Of a DNA stretch of 64,000 nucleotides, positions 2 through 14,380 are shown piece by piece. The notes under the pieces were generated by a model. It did not search any database. It worked only from the letters and a program-made list of their open reading frames with translations, and had not been told where the DNA came from. Origin of the DNA: a virus. The position numbers were made by a program, and so were the translations under genes. The stretch's first letter is position 1; each line of letters opens with the position of its first letter. Location of the stretch: positions 49,211 through 113,210 of IMG/VR virus record IMGVR_UViG_3300025424_000296. One strand, 5' to 3'.

Positions 2-2812
2 CCAAGCAATGTTTTAATTACAACAGGTCGAGAAACATTTATAATTGGTGTAAATGGTAGCTTGACATTGCCAGCAGGTGGTGATATCAAAGACAGCAAT
101 AATAACAGTGTATTATTCAAAGCTAATCAAAGTGTTAACACAAACAGTTCAGTAATATTTTCTAATGTTATAGTATCTAGCAATTTAACAGTTCAAGGAA
201 CAACCACAACTGTTAATCAAAGTGTGTTGAATATTGCGGATAACAAAATAACATTGAATAGTGGACAAACAGGTACTCCCACACAAAATGGTACTTTTGA
301 AGTAGATCGTGGATCTAGCCCAAATACCAGCATACGTTGGAATGAGTCTACTGGAAAGTGGGAACAGACTCGTGACGGTAACACATATGTTGTATTACCT
401 ATTAACACATCAGAACTTGCAGAAGGTACAAACCTATACTTTACCAGTGCAAGAGCAAGAAGTGCGATTAGTGTTACAGGTAGCGGTAGCTACAATAGTT
501 CAACTGGTGTTATTACAATATCTGGAGGAGTTACCAGTGTTAATACACAAACCGGTGCAGTTACACTAACCACAACTAACATAAACGAAGGCACTAATTT
601 ATATTTCAGTAACGCAAGAGTAAGAAGTGCATTGGTAGCAGGCACCGGAATTAATTACAATAGCGGTACTGGCAGTATTAGTGTAATCAACGGTGTTTAT
701 ACAACGGACACAGGCACGGTTACAAATACCATGTTAGCTGGTAATATTGCTGTTTCTAAGATAACTGGACTAGCTGTATCAGCAACAACAGATACTACAA
801 ATGCTAGCAACATTACAAGCGGTACATTACCTAATGCAAGATTAAGTAGTATTCCTAATTCAGCTTTAGCTAACGTTGCAGTAACAATTGGTACAACTTC
901 AGTTAACCTAGGCTCTGCTTCAACAACATTAACTGGTTTAACCACAGTTAACATAGGATCAGCAGTTGCTAACTTGTATAATACTGCACCATTAAATATT
1001 GTAGGTAACAGTGCCGGCAATACCATAATTGGAGTCAATCTTATCAACACTGCGGGCGGTGCTGGTAGTGGTTCTGGTATAGACTTCTACACTTATACTG
1101 GATCCTCGAGTCCTCCAGAAGCAAGAATATTTGCTTACGACAACGGTGACTATTCGGCAAGTATTCAGTTTGCTAACAAGATACCTGGTGCCAATACCAA
1201 TGTTCTACAAACAAATATGACCTTGACTACCAGCGGTAACTTGAACGTTGTTGGTTCTGTTAGTGCTCCAAGTTTTGTAATTAACGGTCAGCCAACAAGT
1301 TTTGGTTTAGTAAACAGTTCTTACTTGTTTGCACAAAATAACGCTGATCAAACAGTAGGGCAAAATGTTGCAGTTAACTTCCAAGTTACAAATGCAAGTA
1401 ACGGCAGTCTTATAAACAAGATAAGCAATACACAAGTAACACTAACAGCAGGTAATACTTATAAACTAGAAGCTGTTGTGAGAAGAATGCAATCAAGTTC
1501 AACTTGGGGTGCATTCAGATGGTATGATGTAACCAATTCTACTTATGTTGGCTTAGAAGGATTTAGTGAAGTAGCAAATTCAAGCGGTGCTATTGGTTCA
1601 ACTGATGTAGCTACATACTATGTAACTCCTAGTGTTAATACCACATATGAACTAAGACAAACCACAGTTAATTCTGTTATTGCAAATGGTAATTATGTTT
1701 CAATGGAAATTACGCAAATCAATCCTGCAATAGCAGTTCAAGCAACTGCTACTGGCACATTGAATGCTAACTATGCCAAATATACAAGAACGACATCACA
1801 AAGTGTATCCGCTAATACGGTAGTTGTTTGTAACGTGGTAGAAAACGTATCAGGCAGCGATATATCAGTTAATACTTCAACTGGACAGGTAACATTAGTT
1901 GCAGGCAAAACTTATAGACTTCGAGGAACAGTAGGAACCATGGCAGGTAGCACAGTATCATCATTGCTGGGTTACTGCTGGTATAATGAAACTACCAGTT
2001 CTTGGATCGGTGAAGGTTCTGGGTGGGTAAGTCCAGGTAGCACCAACTGGAACTCGGCTGCTGGGGGCACTGCTGAAGCAATATTTACTGCTGCATCAAC
2101 CACAGTAGTATCATTTAGAATAATATCTGCAAATAATGTATCTAGTATAGGCGGAACGGCTGCAGACTGGGGATCACCATATGGTTATCCTTGGATTGAC
2201 ATAGAAGAGATTGGAACAGCTTTCAGCCTAAACACAATTAATACATTAACCACTACATCCAGTGTAAGTGTTGGTGGTAATTTATCTGTTGCAGGTAATA
2301 TAACTGGCACATTAAATGTTACTGCTCCAACTTTCCATGGTGTTACACCGTCGTGGTCACTGGGAGATTCAGCTTCAGCTGCTTGGTTCTTGTTAGGAAC
2401 ATGGAATACAACAAATGCTGGTACCTCATTATATATGAGATTGATAGCACACTGCGGGTACAATGCTGTAGCACTTCAAAATCAAGTAACCGAATTGATG
2501 TTTGTTACTAGTAATGCAAGTTCATACATTGCAGGTTCTAGTGGTAACTTCTATGCCAACGGATTAGCTAGTGCAAACAGTCGTTTGGGCACAGGTGGAA
2601 CAAGTCCTAGCTATCAAGCACCAAATTATTTTAGAATTGTTCAAGTATCTCTAACTCAGTATCAAATATATGCTTATTTTGGTTCGGCGTATATGAGAAA
2701 TAGTAACTACAGTATTCAAATCAGCTCAGGTGATACTTGGGTAGATGGCGGCGGCGGTGTAGTATCAGCACCTAGCGGCAACTATATAACTATTACTCCA
2801 ACATCATTCTAA
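2..2812 (+). CDS. Tail fibre / virion fibre protein, 5'-truncated by the window edge
   Basis: Frame is open from base 2. T/S/N/G-rich, with repeated EGTNLYFT/S motifs and two internally repeated domains (TQVTLTAGNTYKL / GQVTLVAGKTYRL). Confidence 0.8.
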   Translation, partial: PSNVLITTGRETFIIGVNGSLTLPAGGDIKDSNNNSVLFKANQSVNTNSSVIFSNVIVSSNLTVQGTTTTVNQSVLNIADNKITLNSGQTGTPTQNGTFEVDRGSSPNTSIRWNESTGKWEQTRDGNTYVVLPINTSELAEGTNLYFTSARARSAISVTGSGSYNSSTGVITISGGVTSVNTQTGAVTLTTTNINEGTNLYFSNARVRSALVAGTGINYNSGTGSISVINGVYTTDTGTVTNTMLAGNIAVSKITGLAVSATTDTTNASNITSGTLPNARLSSIPNSALANVAVTIGTTSVNLGSASTTLTGLTTVNIGSAVANLYNTAPLNIVGNSAGNTIIGVNLINTAGGAGSGSGIDFYTYTGSSSPPEARIFAYDNGDYSASIQFANKIPGANTNVLQTNMTLTTSGNLNVVGSVSAPSFVINGQPTSFGLVNSSYLFAQNNADQTVGQNVAVNFQVTNASNGSLINKISNTQVTLTAGNTYKLEAVVRRMQSSSTWGAFRWYDVTNSTYVGLEGFSEVANSSGAIGSTDVATYYVTPSVNTTYELRQTTVNSVIANGNYVSMEITQINPAIAVQATATGTLNANYAKYTRTTSQSVSANTVVVCNVVENVSGSDISVNTSTGQVTLVAGKTYRLRGTVGTMAGSTVSSLLGYCWYNETTSSWIGEGSGWVSPGSTNWNSAAGGTAEAIFTAASTTVVSFRIISANNVSSIGGTAADWGSPYGYPWIDIEEIGTAFSLNTINTLTTTSSVSVGGNLSVAGNITGTLNVTAPTFHGVTPSWSLGDSASAAWFLLGTWNTTNAGTSLYMRLIAHCGYNAVALQNQVTELMFVTSNASSYIAGSSGNFYANGLASANSRLGTGGTSPSYQAPNYFRIVQVSLTQYQIYAYFGSAYMRNSNYSIQISSGDTWVDGGGGVVSAPSGNYITITPTSF

Positions 2813-2927
2813 TATATTAAATTTTAATATAAGGATTTCAATGATATACAACATTGGTTAGTTAATAATAATCAATGTTGTATAAATATATCGTAAGCCA
2901 TTAATAAATTTAAAAATCAAGTGAACT

Positions 2928-3002
2928 ATGATTAGTGTTCAAAACGTAGCAGTGATCCGGGATCACAGCAGTTTAAACATTAATTTAAGATTCACCGGTT
3001 AA
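2928..3002 (+). CDS. Candidate 24-aa leader peptide MISVQNVAVIRDHSSLNINLRFTG
   Basis: Short ORF after TATAAATA (2881) that ends 5 nt before a terminator hairpin. Confidence 0.35.
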   Translation: MISVQNVAVIRDHSSLNINLRFTG

Positions 3003-3007
3003 AAACC

Positions 3008-3046
3008 AAAGAACTCTAGGGTTACAGAATAGTCCTAGAGTTTTTT
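3008..3046. terminator. Intrinsic terminator, probably bidirectional
   Basis: AAAGAACTCTAGGGTTA-CAGAA-TAGTCCTAGAGTTTTTT stem-loop between convergent ORFs. Confidence 0.75.
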
Positions 3047-3061
3047 GTTAGGTAATTGATA

Positions 3062-3184
3062 TTAGGCTGGTTTCTTAAAATAATGAGTATAGCTACAAAC
3101 AGCAACTAGTTCCCAACCCTGTGCACCAAAACTATTAAGTGTATCTAAATCTGGATTGCCACTATAAATCATATATTGCCACAT
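3062..3184 (-). CDS. 40-aa DUF4177-like small protein (below ORF-track cutoff)
   Basis: MWQYMIYSGNPDLDTLNSFGAQGWELVAVCSYTHYFKKPA. GGAGG RBS and an upstream CTAAATA on the minus strand; LNxxGxxGWELV motif. Confidence 0.65.
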   Translation of the reverse strand: MWQYMIYSGNPDLDTLNSFGAQGWELVAVCSYTHYFKKPA

Positions 3185-3265
3185 GGTAATTCCTCCATTT
3201 TTGATATTTAGTTTATTTTGGTTAACTTTTTGGTTAAAATACCATATTATTGTGGTTAATTTTCA

Positions 3266-3294
3266 TTGACATGATTAAATAAACATGATAAACT
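3266..3294 (+). promoter_or_regulatory. sigma70-like promoter
   Basis: TTGACA-17nt-TAAACT. Confidence 0.65.
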
Positions 3295-3490
3295 ATGCAG
3301 ATAACCACAAGGTTATGTTGAGATAGGGGAGTCTCATCACTCCGAAAAGATTAGTTATGAGTTCCGTGTGAGACACACAAGGCAGTGAATTCTTGTGTAC
3401 GTGAAAATAACAAGATCTTCTCAGCATTACCATGTGGTTGACACTTCTAATAAAGATGCTAATATAATCTATAGCAAAGGAAGTGATGTT

Positions 3491-3619
3491 ATGAATCAAA
3501 ATGAATTAAAATCAGTGCCCACATGGGCAGTTATACTTGTAGCAGTTGGTATGATTGCTGCTAGTGTTGTATATGCTTATACAACTGATCCAACCACAAT
3601 CGCCGATGTAATCAAATAA
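3491..3619 (+). CDS. Small membrane protein
   Basis: One hydrophobic helix; ATG at 3491 preferred over GTG at 3395. Confidence 0.55.
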   Translation: MNQNELKSVPTWAVILVAVGMIAASVVYAYTTDPTTIADVIK

Positions 3620-3623
3620 TGAC

Positions 3624-3700
3624 GGTTGTGTAACTTGGCAGGCGGGATGACGTTCTCATATGTCCTCAAGTCGTAGGTTCCAGTTCTGACACCAAAACTA
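3624..3700 (+). pseudogene. Possible decayed tRNA (CAT-type loop)
   Basis: CTCATA loop, GTCGTAGGTTC T-arm remnant and tRNA-like spacing, but the stems are broken. Confidence 0.3.
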
Positions 3701-3709
3701 TTTTAATAC

Positions 3710-3738
3710 TTGACATAAAAATTACTGTAGAGTAACAT
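3710..3738 (+). promoter_or_regulatory. sigma70-like promoter, leaderless mRNA
   Basis: TTGACA-17nt-TAACAT with the ATG at 3744. Confidence 0.6.
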
Positions 3739-3743
3739 AAAGT

Positions 3744-3935
3744 ATGAGCATACATGAAAAAATAATTATGATACTTGTGATATTGGTTATGCTTGTAATC
3801 AGTATACATTCTGATCAATCACACAATAATAAAGATATCGAAGCTTGTAAACAAGCGGGTAGTGTTGTAGTTATTAAAGATATCACCGGCAAAACTGTTT
3901 GTTTACACCCTGGTGCAGCCATTAACACCAATTAA
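3744..3935 (+). CDS. Small membrane-anchored hypothetical protein
   Basis: N-terminal hydrophobic helix and two Cys. Confidence 0.6.
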   Translation: MSIHEKIIMILVILVMLVISIHSDQSHNNKDIEACKQAGSVVVIKDITGKTVCLHPGAAINTN

Positions 3936-3948
3936 CAGGAGCATGGAC

Positions 3949-4146
3949 ATGTCCAAAGATATTAATTTCAAAGACTATGAACTAACTCAGATGGGAATAG
4001 ATGAAATACTAGATAAGGCTGCTCGTCTACAGGTATTTCTCAGTGAAAATTATAATAACATCACACTTCAAATGTGTATCGATCATGTGATCCGTGCATA
4101 TGCATCATATAATCCAGCCGAAGAAACTGTGGGTAAATACGCCTAA
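3949..4146 (+). CDS. Hypothetical protein
   Basis: AGGAG RBS at 3937 before the ATG at 3949. Confidence 0.6.
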   Translation: MSKDINFKDYELTQMGIDEILDKAARLQVFLSENYNNITLQMCIDHVIRAYASYNPAEETVGKYA

Positions 4147-4316
4147 TACAGTCCGGGCTAATCCTCTACTAGGCCAATGCAAATTTGAGCTTAGATATGA
4201 TGTTAAATCTGGGATTTACCAGTGAACTTAGAGGACGCTCTAAGGTACGGATATCCAGGGGTGACAAGCCCCATTAAAATCATTTCTAACTAGGCAATAT
4301 GACTTATAAGTAACAT

Positions 4317-5771: not shown

Positions 5772-5826
5772 TTGACATTAAGTTATAAGGCACTATATTA
5801 AACATATAAAAGAAAGGAAACCGACT

Positions 5827-6015
5827 ATGAATAGATTCTTTATTACAACAACTCTAATGGTCGTACTTGCTACAACTTCGATCCCTAACTATCTAGGATC
5901 TCTGATCGATGGAAATAGTGGTGGCTATCGATACGAAGCCAATGCTTCTACAATTAATAGAAAGCTGTCTTGTTTTACTCGTAGCTGGGATGGACACACT
6001 ACAGACTGTCTCTGA
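5827..6015 (+). CDS. Small exported hypothetical protein
   Basis: AAGGA RBS, promoter TTGACA at 5772, signal-like N-terminus. Confidence 0.55.
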   Translation: MNRFFITTTLMVVLATTSIPNYLGSLIDGNSGGYRYEANASTINRKLSCFTRSWDGHTTDCL

Positions 6016-6062
6016 GGTTAACAGAGTTTTAAAAGATGCTAGTATATATGAGTAATAAATGT

Positions 6063-6142
6063 TTCCTTGTAGCTCAGTTGGTAAAGTAGTGACTGTTAAT
6101 CACTTAATCACTTAGTCGTTGGTTCGAGTCCAACCGGGGGAG
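6063..6142 (+). pseudogene. Degenerate tRNA-Asn(GTT) with 8-nt tandem duplication
   Basis: AGTGA-CTGTTAA-TCACT anticodon arm and GTTGG-TTCGAGT-CCAAC T arm. TAATCACT is duplicated, the D-stem has a mismatch and the gene ends ACA rather than CCA. Confidence 0.75.
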
Positions 6143-6196
6143 ACAAAATTAAATAATTTTGTGATTTGACTCAGTTACGTACATCACTTATAATCA

Positions 6197-10965: not shown

Positions 10966-12525
10966 ATGCAAATTAATAGTATAATAATTGTAGGCGGGGG
11001 ATCATCAGGATGGATGACTGCTGCTCTAATTTCAAAATTACTACCTGAAATTAATTTATCACTAGTAGAATCTAAACATATACCTATCATCGGCGTCGGG
11101 GAATCAACTTTATCAAGTATTAACTCATATTTGCGAAGACTTGAAATACATGATGATCAATGGATGAGTAAATGTAATGCTACTTATAAAACATCTATTA
11201 GATTTACTAATTTTTTTGAACAGGGTAAATCATATCATGACGTATTAAAATATCTAGAGGTTCCATTTCCCATACCAGGTAATTTTGGAATTACAATATT
11301 TAATCTATTATGCCTTAGATTTCCTGACGAATTTAGACCAGAAGATTTACCTAAATTTGCAGATGACACTTGGCAAATGATAGAAAATAACAGGTACACC
11401 GATGATCCTGGTCCAATGAGTTGGGATACTAAAAAAGAAAAAGCATATCATTTTGATGCTTATAAATTTGGATTGGTATTAAAAGATTTATTAGCCATTC
11501 CGAATGGAACAACACACATACAAGACGATGTATTAGAAGTACAAACTGATAAATTTGGTGTTAGCGGACTTGTGACTAAAGAACATGGAATATTAACAGC
11601 CGACTTATACATAGACTGTACAGGATTTAAGTCGTTATTGCTAGGTGAAACATTGGATACCCCTTTTAATAGGTTTGATGATACGCTGTTAAATAATAAA
11701 GCTGTAGTTACCAACATACCATATCTTGATAAAGTTAATGAATTAACCAGTTATACTGATTGTACAACCATGCCAAATGGTTGGCTATGGACTATCCCTA
11801 CATGGGATAAACTCGGAACAGGATATGTTTATTCAGATAAATTTGTTGATAATGAAACTGCAAAAAAACAATTTATAGACACTCTGAGATCTCGATATGG
11901 AGACAGAGTTAACGAATGTGAATTCCGTTACATTGAATTCACTCCCGGTGTGAGGGATATACCATGGAATAAAAATGTCGTCGGTATTGGACTAAGTTGT
12001 GGATTTATAGAACCACTTAGATCAACCGGACTTCAGGTTACACATGATATGGCAATAACATTAACTGATATATTAATTAAAAACAGTAGGAAAATAGGTA
12101 GTATTAATAAAGAAATTTATAATTTTAATGTTAAAGTACTCTTGCACAATGCTAGAGATTTTGTATCTTTACATTACGCATTATCTAAAAGATGCGACAC
12201 AGATTATTGGAAACACGCAGTAAATGATGTAAGTTATTTTAAGGATAATGATCTTTTTAAACAATTTGCATATTCTGGAACTAGTAATGTATTGAATAAA
12301 TTTAACAGTAATGATCAAATGTTTAGAACGTATGCTAGTTCTGGATATAATAGAATGACAGAAGCTGATTTTAAAATTTTATTAGACGATAATCCTGATT
12401 TAGATAGAGATTTACAAACTGTTAAAAAGATATGGACAAGACGGCATCAAGAAATCGGAGCATATGTAAAAACGTTGCCTACTACAGCTGAATTTTTAAA
12501 GAAAAATATATATAATACCGATTGA
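10966..12525 (+). CDS. Flavin-dependent tryptophan halogenase family protein
   Basis: GGGSSG, IGVGEST, ATYK, YHFDA, IDCTGF, GWLWTIP, FIEPLRSTG. Confidence 0.9.
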   Translation: MQINSIIIVGGGSSGWMTAALISKLLPEINLSLVESKHIPIIGVGESTLSSINSYLRRLEIHDDQWMSKCNATYKTSIRFTNFFEQGKSYHDVLKYLEVPFPIPGNFGITIFNLLCLRFPDEFRPEDLPKFADDTWQMIENNRYTDDPGPMSWDTKKEKAYHFDAYKFGLVLKDLLAIPNGTTHIQDDVLEVQTDKFGVSGLVTKEHGILTADLYIDCTGFKSLLLGETLDTPFNRFDDTLLNNKAVVTNIPYLDKVNELTSYTDCTTMPNGWLWTIPTWDKLGTGYVYSDKFVDNETAKKQFIDTLRSRYGDRVNECEFRYIEFTPGVRDIPWNKNVVGIGLSCGFIEPLRSTGLQVTHDMAITLTDILIKNSRKIGSINKEIYNFNVKVLLHNARDFVSLHYALSKRCDTDYWKHAVNDVSYFKDNDLFKQFAYSGTSNVLNKFNSNDQMFRTYASSGYNRMTEADFKILLDDNPDLDRDLQTVKKIWTRRHQEIGAYVKTLPTTAEFLKKNIYNTD

Positions 12526-12549
12526 CTTTATCAACAAAGACTATATAGT
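12522..12549 (+). promoter_or_regulatory. sigma70-like promoter of leader/tRNA unit
   Basis: TTGACT-16nt-TATAGT. Confidence 0.6.
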
Positions 12550-12560
12550 ATAAAAACGTT

Positions 12561-12650
12561 ATGAGAAAGAACAAAACAGTGGGCTACTGGCTAAATTTTA
12601 TTTGTTTGCAACTAACCTGGATTGAACCAGGGGAGGGGCCTATCGTATAG
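12561..12650 (+). CDS. 29-aa attenuator leader peptide MRKNKTVGYWLNFICLQLTWIEPGEGPIV
   Basis: Starts just after the promoter; its stop codon lies in the 5' arm of the antiterminator. Confidence 0.65.
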   Translation: MRKNKTVGYWLNFICLQLTWIEPGEGPIV

Positions 12651-12716
12651 TGTGATGTGATGACATTATACGACTTTTAGGCCCTTGGAACAGACGTGTT
12701 TCAAGGGTTTTTGTTT
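12634..12716 (+). promoter_or_regulatory. Transcription attenuator (mutually exclusive antiterminator/terminator)
   Basis: Antiterminator 12634-12653 pairs with 12663-12686. Terminator 12679-12692 pairs with 12697-12710 and is followed by a U tract. The two share 12679-12686. Confidence 0.75.
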
Positions 12717-12734
12717 ATCAAAGGAGAAACTGAA

Positions 12735-12890
12735 ATGAAATGGTCCAAGTTGATTCAACGAACATACAAAGCTATAATCAAGGGCGATGTAGAAAAAGAA
12801 GCCAAACTATGGCATAGAGCTCTTAAGAAAAATATGAAAGCGCATGCCAAAGGTAAAAAGAGAAAACCAGGCGATACTGTTATACGTTAA
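12735..12890 (+). CDS. Small basic hypothetical protein
   Basis: AAGGAG RBS; MKWSKLIQRTYKAI..., Lys-rich. Confidence 0.65.
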   Translation: MKWSKLIQRTYKAIIKGDVEKEAKLWHRALKKNMKAHAKGKKRKPGDTVIR

Positions 12891-12900
12891 AATCCAGTAT

Positions 12901-12977
12901 GCTCCCATAGATTACGTTGGTTAGATCGTTGCCCTTTCACGGCAAAGAACCCGGATCGTCGCCGGGTGGGAGCACCA
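12901..12977 (+). tRNA. tRNA-Glu(TTC)
   Basis: GCTCCCA/TGGGAGC acceptor, TTGCC-CTTTCAC-GGCAA, encoded CCA; atypical T loop ATCGTCG. Confidence 0.92.
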
Positions 12978-12991
12978 TTTAAAAGTTATAA

Positions 12992-13068
12992 TGGCGTGTA
13001 GCTCGGTTGGTCAGAGCATTCGACTGATAATCGAAAGGTCGGTAGTTCAAATCTACCCATGCCAACCA
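12992..13068 (+). tRNA. tRNA-Ile(GAT)
   Basis: Full cloverleaf, TTCGA-CTGATAA-TCGAA, CCA. Confidence 0.95.
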
Positions 13069-13134
13069 TTATAAATAGATTTACTACAATTTATACCATA
13101 AAATATCATATTTATAATACATAAAGGAACATTC

Positions 13135-13902
13135 ATGCTCATCGATTGTGTTTCATTTCTAAATGAATATGAAATGTTAGAGGGTAGATTAAAATATCTT
13201 TATGATATAGTCGACCACTTTATTATAGTAGAATCAGACTTTACATACACAGGTACACCTAAACCATTTAATTTTCAAGAAAATCGTGATAGATACATGC
13301 CATTCATGGATAAAATCATTTATCTTCCTACACATCTTGATTATCAACCAGGAGTTAATCCCTGGCATATAGAAGACCGTCAACGAAATAGATATAATGA
13401 TGCACTACAAGAATTCAGTAATGACACAGTGGTTATGATGAGCGACTGTGACGAAATACCATTGAAAGCTACGATACCTGCAGCAATTGAAGATTTAAAA
13501 CAGAAAGGAACAACAACTGCATTCCAACAGCAATGCTTTTGGTTTAATTTTGATTGTTATGCAACATATCATAGCAATCCATGGCCGGGTACAATCATGT
13601 CAACAGTTGGAATTTTAAGAAATCAAACAACTGGCCCAATGCGCGGACAACGATACCATTATAGACCAACTCAAAATGGTGGCTATCATCTTTCATACTT
13701 TTTTGACAACGAACGAATCAGTTTTAAAATACAAAGCTCGTCGCATAGAGAACAAGACTCTGAGACTGTTAGAAATTTAGACTACATTAGTGATAAAATT
13801 AAAAATCGTATTTGTTTGTTTAACAATGTACCATTTGACACCCCGCCTCCAATTGATCCTGAAATTTATGAAATTTTTCACGGATTACAAAATATGGGAT
13901 AA
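13135..13902 (+). CDS. GT17-like beta-1,4-N-acetylglucosaminyltransferase
   Basis: FLNEYEML, VDHFIIVES..TYTG.PKP, SDCDEIP, GYHLSYF. Confidence 0.85.
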   Translation: MLIDCVSFLNEYEMLEGRLKYLYDIVDHFIIVESDFTYTGTPKPFNFQENRDRYMPFMDKIIYLPTHLDYQPGVNPWHIEDRQRNRYNDALQEFSNDTVVMMSDCDEIPLKATIPAAIEDLKQKGTTTAFQQQCFWFNFDCYATYHSNPWPGTIMSTVGILRNQTTGPMRGQRYHYRPTQNGGYHLSYFFDNERISFKIQSSSHREQDSETVRNLDYISDKIKNRICLFNNVPFDTPPPIDPEIYEIFHGLQNMG

Positions 13903-13966
13903 ATCCTTAATTTATTGACTTTGTAACTTTTATTACAAAATAATAAATGATCAAGGAGGAAAGACC

Positions 13967-14158
13967 ATGAATAAGATTTTAATCACACTAATAGTATCAC
14001 TATTTGCTACATCTGTTGTGGCACTAACCGTCATACCGGCAGCAGTAAAAACTTCAAATGATGTTGCAGTTTCCAAACCAGCTGCTAAATCCCACACAGG
14101 AACTTGGTTGCCACCAAAAGAAATACAAGACAAGGTTGCAAAAGAAAAACAAAAATAA
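13967..14158 (+). CDS. Small exported protein
   Basis: AGGAG RBS and signal peptide. Confidence 0.6.
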   Translation: MNKILITLIVSLFATSVVALTVIPAAVKTSNDVAVSKPAAKSHTGTWLPPKEIQDKVAKEKQK

Positions 14159-14172
14159 TATACTTTAAAGAT

Positions 14173-14248
14173 GCTGGTGTAGCTCAGTTGATAGAGCGCG
14201 GCATTAGTAATGCCGATGTCGGGAGTTTGAACCTCTCCACCAGCACCA
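14173..14248 (+). tRNA. tRNA-Thr(AGT)
   Basis: GCTGGTG/CACCAGC acceptor, CGGCA-TTAGTAA-TGCCG, CCA. Confidence 0.9.
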
Positions 14249-14253
14249 CCTTA

Positions 14254-14380
14254 GCCCTTGTAGCCCAACTGGCAGAGGCAGGAGACTTACGAGAAAGGGT
14301 TAAAGCCCATAACGGTGCGATTCCGGAATCTCGGAGATAAAATCTCCCAAGTATCAGTTCGAATCTGATCAAGGGCACCA
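14254..14380 (+). tRNA. tRNA-Leu(TAA) interrupted by a 50-nt insert in the anticodon
   Basis: Removing 14290-14339 restores a 77-nt cloverleaf: GCCCTTG/CAAGGGC, GGAGA-CTTAAAA-TCTCC, ATCAG-TTCGAAT-CTGAT, CCA. Confidence 0.85.

Follow-up and report, generated by a model that had tools for sequence, protein, structure and literature searches.

The tRNA genes of phages are usually viewed as constitutive codon-usage helpers or as decoys for anticodon nucleases. The question of how they are controlled is raised by an element at positions 12522-12716 of a 64,000-nucleotide stretch of viral DNA (hereafter the window; bases 49211-113210 of the 113-kb IMG/VR record IMGVR_UViG_3300025424_000296), which lies ahead of a small open reading frame (ORF) and the genes of tRNA-Glu(UUC) and tRNA-Ile(GAU). 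Our tentative answer, which we consider quite possible though a little short of probable, is that this element may attenuate transcription of a small early unit, consisting of the small ORF, tRNA-Glu and tRNA-Ile, in whose leader it lies, and that it is most likely read by the ribosome on a 29-codon leader ORF. As the design is kept in the closest complete relative, a genuine switch in the manner of the trp operon is probable. In full-text searches of the literature, no paper came up in which phage tRNA genes are controlled by attenuation. What we obtained here were the structures and their energies, the order of folding in silico, the conservation of the design and an open frame in one relative.

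Both of the structures that the initial annotation had described were found (Table 1). The antiterminator comprised 20 base pairs (bp) around a 4-nucleotide (nt) bulge, with an energy of -27.6 kcal/mol, and a second register paired 12627-12633 with 12682-12688. The terminator had an energy of -18.8 kcal/mol, or -31.0 kcal/mol together with the small hairpin that precedes it, and it was, tied with one other, the strongest terminator-like site on the + strand of the 113-kb record. The antiterminator and the 5' arm of the terminator had 8 nt in common, and the 3' end of the leader ORF overlapped the 5' arm of the antiterminator. The 166-nt leader as a whole folded better than 200 of 200 shuffled sequences (z = -4.85), its first 60 nt being AU-rich and little structured. 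When the 5' arm of the terminator was allowed to pair with upstream sequence, the gain was -10.9 kcal/mol, the highest among 35 terminator-like sites of the record; a gain as large arose with 6.4% of the shuffled upstream segments and with 2.6% of those drawn at random from the genome, and replacing the 12 nt located 5' of the hairpin by random genomic 12-mers gave equal stability in 1.7% of the trials. The mere probability that terminator 5' arms pair with upstream sequence was uninformative, as it was high for most terminators.

Table 1. Features of the leader, of its surroundings and of the leaders compared with it (window positions unless another locus is named)
Feature	Position	Strand	Details
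Sigma-70-type promoter	12522-12549	+	TTGACT-16-TATAGT; predicted transcript start ~12555-12558
Leader ORF	12561-12650	+	MRKNKTVGYWLNFICLQLTWIEPGEGPIV; ATG 12561, 29 sense codons, TAG 12648-12650
Small hairpin	12616-12631	+	CCUGG-AUUGAA-CCAGG; weak extension 12608-13 with 12634-39
Motif GGGGAGGGGC	12630-12639	+	within last ORF codons; G-runs pair with C-run at terminator base
Antiterminator hairpin	12634-12686	+	12634-12642/12678-12686 (9 bp) stacked on 12643-12653/12663-12673 (11 bp)
Intrinsic terminator	12679-12716	+	14-bp stem 12679-12710, GACG loop, U-rich tail TTGTTT
Shine-Dalgarno sequence (AAGGAG) and 51-codon ORF	12722-12890	+	ATG 12735; ORF 12735-12890; lysine-rich, basic, orphan
tRNA-Glu(UUC)	12901-12977	+	45.3 bits
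tRNA-Ile(GAU)	12992-13068	+	69.6 bits
Late-promoter-like motif TATAAATA	13071-13078	+	precedes family-17 glycosyltransferase (GT17) gene
tRNA-Thr	14173
tRNA-like gene, 'tRNA-Leu'	14254-14377		Rfam only (not ARAGORN); ~50-nt insertion in anticodon region
tRNA-like gene, CAU anticodon	18205-18278		Rfam only (not ARAGORN); odd T-arm
GGTTGACA-family promoters	G000 genome 14696, 22335, 38232, 38727, 39044; window 5772, 18048, 27860(-)
L253 promoter-like site	L253 10469-10498		TTGACA-16-TATAAATA
L253 leader ORF	L253 10542-10685		47 codons
L253 motif GGGGTGGGGC	L253 10665-10674		counterpart of GGGGAGGGGC 12630-12639
L260 leader	L260:1-270		IMGVR_UViG_3300037418_003161, 236-kb contig; 31-codon ORF 15-110; terminator 143-172
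L281 leader	L281:290-560		IMGVR_UViG_3300015214_000024, 455 kb, complete; promoter-like TTGACA-17-TAAAGT; 34-codon ORF 379-483; terminator 514-538

The promoter proposed upstream of the leader was also present, overlapping the end of a halogenase gene (position 12525). It belonged to a strict class, defined as TTGACN-16..18-(at least 5/6 of TATAAT), for which dinucleotide shuffles gave 3.1 ± 1.6 sites whereas the + strand had 20, a 6-fold excess, and the - strand 6; it was weaker than the GGTTGACA-N16-TATTAT family of the same record, and promoter-like sites with 10 of 12 matches occurred at chance frequency. The leader ORF starts 12 nt past the -10 box, and a recount confirmed its 25 different codons and 16 amino acids; this diversity is no evidence of a general sensor, as any random ORF shows the same. 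Stop codons fell at 12648-12663 in all three frames, so that the position of the stop alone was uninformative, and so was a codon-usage frame score, which was inflated by the stops in the other frames.

In order to follow the competition between the two structures, successive prefixes of the transcript were folded, and the long hairpin formed once position 12686 had emerged (p ~0.87 until 12703 was transcribed), the terminator prevailing only once 12709 was available. Co-transcriptional folding was among the checks that the initial annotation had proposed. Ribosomes were then represented by a mask extending from -12 to +15 around the P site, an equilibrium calculation with a crude footprint. 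With the A site at Ile14, Ile21 or Glu22, the lower stem of the antiterminator had a probability of 0.66-0.98 before the 3' arm of the terminator emerged, and with the A site at Ile14 it was still favoured (0.69) at the decision point, whereas with the ribosome at Glu25, Ile28 or the stop codon the lower stem fell to 0 and the terminator reached 0.94. These calculations show the physical coherence of the model and not its operation.

The mechanism that we propose would run as follows. Host RNA polymerase would initiate at about 12556, and the nascent RNA would first fold the hairpin 12634-12686, sequestering the C-rich base of the terminator 5' arm and leading to read-through. A ribosome at the last four codons or at the TAG would cover the G-rich 5' strand, so that the terminator stem 12679-12710 would form and transcription would end at about 12716; a ribosome lagging or stalled at or before Ile21-Glu22 would leave the antiterminator free, and the small ORF and the tRNAs would be made. 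The direction of control, in which prompt translation leads to termination and delay to read-through, we infer from this geometry; activity of the promoter, translation of the ORF and the part of the ribosome as trigger are suppositions of the same kind. By analogy with the toiL leader of Escherichia coli, a general response to ribosome delay would fit better than sensing of specific Ile and Glu codons. Codons in the 3' part of the leader had been said to match the two nearest tRNAs, and four of the last nine were indeed for Ile or Glu, a marginal signal (window-corrected P 0.056); over the whole leader, where 8.9% would be expected, Ile(AUU/AUC) and Glu codons amounted to 5/28 (P 0.098). Any part in countering anticodon nucleases would be speculation.

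A second leader of the same design was found in the closest complete relative of this phage, the 518,643-bp megaphage genome G001, which has terminal repeats and a Clp ATPase with 68% amino-acid identity. The locus (L253, G001 110001-126800) was found by inspecting the sole strong terminator in a 36-kb tRNA region of that genome. Written as a pattern, the design is GGGGNGGGGC-N8-stop-N30-CCNNGGAA...TTTCNNGG, in which GGGGNGGGGC is a rare motif occurring in identical codon phase in this record and in G001. In both phages the codons read GGG GNG GGG CNN ATN GNN TAG, the TAG lying 18 nt past the start of the motif. The long hairpin of L253 was imperfect and GNRA-capped, with a sequence unrelated to that of this phage, and its base helix UGGGGUG/CACCCCG had CCCG (4 nt) in common with the terminator. 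The latter consisted of 10 bp with a U6 tract and started 51 nt past the motif (49 nt in this phage), tRNA-Leu(CAG) following 248 nt downstream of it. The terminator had -17.2 and the long hairpin -20.9 kcal/mol, and ribosome masks placed on the G001 leader gave switching as in this phage. In G001 the ORF was preceded by a 40-nt leader with only a weak AGG/GGA.

The motif GGGGNGGGG was present at a single place in this 113-kb record and at two places in G001, and three other relatives lacked it; motif and stop together were present once in 50 related records, and the joint pattern of motif, stop and terminator was found in no IMG/VR contig besides this record and G001. In a MAFFT alignment of the two leaders, the terminator kept 10 of 10 pairs, four of them by double changes, and in the alternative pairing the core that joins the first G-run to the C-run of the terminator kept 5 of 5 bp, with one double and one single change. 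This conserved core corresponds in this phage to the second register, the stronger register using the second G-run. The two leader peptides had only G-x-G in common, which is imposed by the RNA motif. The frame set by the motif contained an ORF of at least 15 codons in 7% (here) and 24% (G001) of shuffles and of at least 25 codons in 2.5% and 13%, so the joint chance of both frames being open was 0.017 and 0.003, respectively. A frame kept open while the peptide is not conserved is what would be expected of a regulatory leader ORF, and, coming from two sequences, it is suggestive, not statistical. The earlier attenuator reading was supported in part: its mutually exclusive structures stood, its design recurred in G001, and the switching could be reproduced by the mask model. 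The same 36-kb region of G001 (110001-146000, loci L253, L246 and L254) carried at least 38 tRNA genes interleaved with small ORFs.

The arrangement downstream of the terminator was as described in the initial annotation, with a small basic ORF, tRNA-Glu and tRNA-Ile. The Shine-Dalgarno sequence of the small ORF begins 12 nt past the terminator stem and its start codon lies 19 nt past the U-tract; as no -10-like hexamer, and hence no promoter, fits between the stem and the Shine-Dalgarno sequence, any mRNA for the small ORF must cross the terminator. A promoter of the tRNAs' own had been named as a finding that would speak against the attenuator, and none of the strict class was present between the terminator and tRNA-Glu/tRNA-Ile, the nearest being the one at 12522 and the next one at 13703. 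The tRNAs could be fed from within the small ORF by a weaker match, TTGATT-17-TATAAT at 12750, but sites of this quality arise at chance frequency. The late-promoter-like TATAAATA at 13071-13078 probably marks the end of the regulated unit. Searches with the 51-residue product found no homologue or family in a set of 5.8 billion proteins, Atlas, PDB, Pfam or PHROGs, and conservation of the ORF was seen neither in G001 nor elsewhere.

Several observations weigh against the attenuator. The leader ORF lacks a Shine-Dalgarno sequence, the core of which was found in 36 of 91 genes against a background of 6%, and its AUG would lie 4-6 nt from the predicted transcript start, which makes for poor initiation in E. 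coli-like hosts. An ATG-started ORF of at least 15 codons ending in 12634-12663 was found in 22% of dinucleotide shuffles, and one of at least 29 codons in 5%. There is no run of regulatory codons, and the marginal Ile/Glu enrichment has no counterpart in G001, where Leu plus Cys codons numbered 6/46 (P 0.3) and showed no cognate enrichment. Judged from this one sequence, no feature is more than modestly unlikely by chance (p ~0.02-0.2; for the alternative pairing, p 0.017-0.064), and a terminator of the type CC..GGAA/UUUC..GG is generic, with 30 matches in IMG/VR. When no ribosome was placed on the leader, the terminator was favoured at equilibrium (p 0.92), because the weak extension of the small hairpin at 12616-12631, which rivals the antiterminator in the absence of a ribosome, competes for the G-rich strand; that extension may be a faint analogue of the 1:2 structure of trp leaders. 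Since the terminator wins under these conditions, read-through would depend on kinetic trapping. The covariation that had been suggested as a check rests on two homologues, too few for covariation statistics, and the pair-conservation score of the terminator was reached by 37 of 500 shuffles. Furthermore, the stretch that separates the terminator from tRNA-Leu in G001 contains a weaker promoter-like site.

Some of these points would equally suit a tiny early gene, or the 3' untranslated region of the halogenase gene, with a structured terminator behind it that leaks constitutively; the long hairpin would stabilise the 3' end or be a site of processing, by RNase III for example. Expression of the downstream genes would then come from read-through that is not regulated or from a weak promoter within the unit, as for the delayed-early genes of phage T4. 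A terminator that is thermodynamically favoured whatever the upstream state, a leader ORF with no Shine-Dalgarno sequence, promoter-like sites of 10/12 matches at chance frequency, among them that at 12750, and a 20-bp stem with a single bulge, a size comparable to that of RNase III substrates, are all in keeping with this explanation. It leaves unexplained, however, why the pairing of the G-run with the C-run was kept in G001 although the sequence of the hairpin was replaced, and why the same frame, closed by the same TAG, was open in both phages with unrelated peptides. The site is also atypical for a plain terminator of this phage, as those usually lie 20-60 nt past a stop codon and this one is 154 nt past that of the halogenase and downstream of a promoter. 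We regard this explanation as unlikely.

It is improbable, in our estimation, that the same switch has another reader, such as an RNA-binding protein of the phage or the host (for instance the 51-residue protein in a feedback loop of the kind that ribosomal proteins L4 and L10 exert on their leaders), the speed of the polymerase, the level of nucleoside triphosphates or an unknown ligand. Leaders read by proteins have a precedent in attenuation by L10(L12)4 (PMC4538822), and the first downstream gene does encode a small and very basic product, the two states being nearly equal in energy. That product, however, is conserved neither in G001 nor elsewhere, the AU-rich and little structured 5' 60 nt are unlike an aptamer, and a conserved open frame would go unexplained. 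No riboswitch or T-box of Rfam matched at E <=10, by which these two classes were rejected as candidates; a degenerate tRNA or T-arm remnant was likewise discarded, being called by neither ARAGORN nor Infernal. A stand-alone small RNA of ~160 nt (12556-12716), possibly of dual function and encoding a 29-residue peptide, which would act in trans and whose terminator would precede the tRNAs incidentally, is quite improbable: a probable promoter and a strong terminator 160 nt apart, an AU-rich unstructured 5' part, and two hairpins with a U tail towards the 3' end would suit it, and the tRNA cluster of T4 encodes stable small RNAs, but a gene with a strong Shine-Dalgarno sequence and no promoter of its own follows 19 nt past the U-tract, then the tRNAs, what G001 has kept is the switch region rather than a 5' 'seed', and no Rfam family corresponds to it.

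For the ribosome-read attenuator, further relatives were sought in several ways. A blastn search of the region against INPHARED phages matched the tRNA genes only; 160 loci around halogenase homologues (IMG/VR, JGI metagenomes) were all at most 44% identical and nhmmer found none among them; the neighbouring GT17 had no close relative in IMG/VR; and no match was obtained with DNA patterns, exact or degenerate, of the antiterminator, of tRNA-Glu or of the peptide after back-translation. A covariance model built from this sequence alone (R1) and BLAST searches with the leader, the small ORF, the halogenase and GT17 against five relatives revealed no synteny and no match, and one BLAST match, L242, was rejected as a homologue because it is located inside a coding region. 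Searching 50 related records with the model built from the two leaders (R2) yielded no additional member. This model also gave a weak match (E 0.24) at window positions 3003-3055, within a 1.5-kb stretch (2813-4316) that contains no ORF of at least 90 amino acids and has a bidirectional-looking terminator near 3010-3041.

Two leaders in other jumbo phages, whose Clp ATPases were 41-46% identical, were picked out of the 30 generic terminator matches in IMG/VR. In L260, the last ORF codons, UUGUGAGUUCG, were complementary to the 5' arm and loop of the terminator, and the antiterminator was the best fold until the 3' arm was added; tRNA-Leu begins 8 nt past the U-tract and is followed by tRNAs for Leu, Tyr, Leu, Val, Pro, Phe and Lys. 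Codons for the amino acids of these downstream tRNAs made up 20 of 30 in the leader, against 38.5% expected (P 0.0016). The ORF of L281 ended in GAGGGUGUUCGAGAAUAA, and the base CACCC of its long hairpin overlapped the terminator sequence CCCGGG...; tRNA-Val(GAC), -Phe and -Ile start from 556, 12 nt past the U-tract. L281 matched model R2 over its full length (36 bits), though it had been selected via its terminator, and on this sequence likeness it is possibly a distant homologue of the 12522-12716 element. Neither tRNA array has room for a promoter of its own.

That megaphages gate some of their tRNA genes by a ribosome-read attenuator, so that a delay or stall caused by tRNA depletion or cleavage, by starvation or by inhibitors would yield tRNAs and a small basic protein, is a wider proposition that we hold to be less likely than not, though far from implausible. 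If it were true, a virus would encode a sensor for the health of translation and could use it as an inducible response to defences that target tRNAs; the phage would measure translation and tune its tRNA supply, and attenuation would be extended to viruses and to a new class of regulated genes. The leader, of ~160 nt, is a compact part that lends itself to testing.

The record itself is a fragment of a large phage genome (CheckV completeness 28%, GC content ~36%), its nearest relatives by Clp ATPase being jumbo phage and megaphage contigs. Its genes include those for a tail fibre, a Clp-type ATPase, a protein of 4416 amino acids, the Trp halogenase and glycosyl- and methyltransferases, and it has at least eight tRNAs. 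Of the further tRNAs that the initial annotation had placed downstream, tRNA-Thr was found; the tRNA-Leu was called by Rfam only and has a long insertion, and it and the other tRNA-like gene scored 44 and 42 bits (Table 1). A strict-class promoter precedes each of the genes of tRNA-Met, -Asn, -Thr and -Cys by 40-250 nt, without an intervening terminator, and two of these units have a small ORF ahead of the tRNA. Such promoter, small ORF and tRNA units lie at window positions 5772-6144 and 13915-14377, neither with a terminator; a 62-residue ORF precedes tRNA-Asn and a 63-residue ORF precedes tRNA-Thr and the insertion-bearing tRNA, both having hydrophobic N-termini. In this phage, small ORFs and tRNAs seem to be cotranscribed habitually.

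Two promoter types were prominent in the record, one sigma-70-like (TTGACA-N16-18-TATAAT) and one resembling the late promoters of T4 (ATAAATA), the latter motif being enriched 13-fold upstream of genes. Strong promoters of early type formed a close family, GGTTGACA-N16-TAT(T/A)AT, with TGC preceding the -10 box in three; a position weight matrix built from 9 sites was overfitted and uninformative. The standard genetic code fitted the record, and recoding of TAG was rejected since it raised the coding fraction merely from 0.90 to 0.918, a smaller gain than for TAA. The leader ORF and the 51-codon ORF share a frame and are parted by two TAG codons alone (12648 and 12678), so that TAG read-through would yield one frame of 109 codons and take ribosomes over the terminator. 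A tRNA with a CUA anticodon is encoded in G001 (L246:2791-2865) and none in the available 28% of this record.

Compared with the amino-acid leaders of enterobacteria (trpL, hisL, pheL, thrL, ilv; Rfam RF00513, RF00514), the leader described here likewise has a short ORF near the promoter, an antiterminator that forms first and has a strand in common with an intrinsic terminator, a stop codon sited so that the terminating ribosome covers the 5' strand of the antiterminator, and a frame that is conserved where the peptide sequence is not. The distance from the stop codon to the termination point, ~68 nt, is also that of the trp leader. In contrast with those leaders, it has no run of codons for a single amino acid, no Shine-Dalgarno sequence and only a weak protector hairpin of the 1:2 type, and it precedes phage tRNA genes and a small ORF instead of biosynthetic enzymes. 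When the Rfam leader, riboswitch and T-box families were searched (E <=10), only tRNAs passed the threshold, the best leader match being His_leader with 17.6 bits against the 49 required.

A parallel in behaviour, following the logic that the initial annotation proposed, may be offered by short upstream ORFs that sense translation stress in general, namely toiL of the E. coli topAI-yjhQ operon (PMC12121999) and the leaders of vmlR (PMC9226507) and msrD (10.1101/2021.11.29.470318). In these systems too, the ORF has no special codons, and ribosomes stalled at various positions remodel the downstream structure and turn the gene on; they differ in controlling bacterial resistance or toxin genes, and toiL in acting through occlusion of the ribosome-binding site and Rho, not through an intrinsic terminator. 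For tRNA genes made on demand, the closest published concept comes from Anabaena PCC 7120, whose silent tRNA array (trn operon) is induced under translational stress (PMC8421152) and controlled by the repressor TrcR (PMC10272220). There, as proposed here, auxiliary tRNA genes are off until translation is impaired, but the switch is a DNA-binding ribbon-helix-helix repressor and not an RNA, and the array is carried by a cellular megaplasmid and not by a phage.

The two jumbo-phage leaders L260 and L281 resemble this one in that the ORF starts near the promoter and that its 3' end is the antiterminator strand and is followed by a terminator and by tRNA genes on the same strand. They differ in that a protein gene stands between the terminator and the tRNAs only in this phage, and L260 in that its ORF is written in the codons of the downstream tRNAs, a signal that is weak or absent here and in G001.

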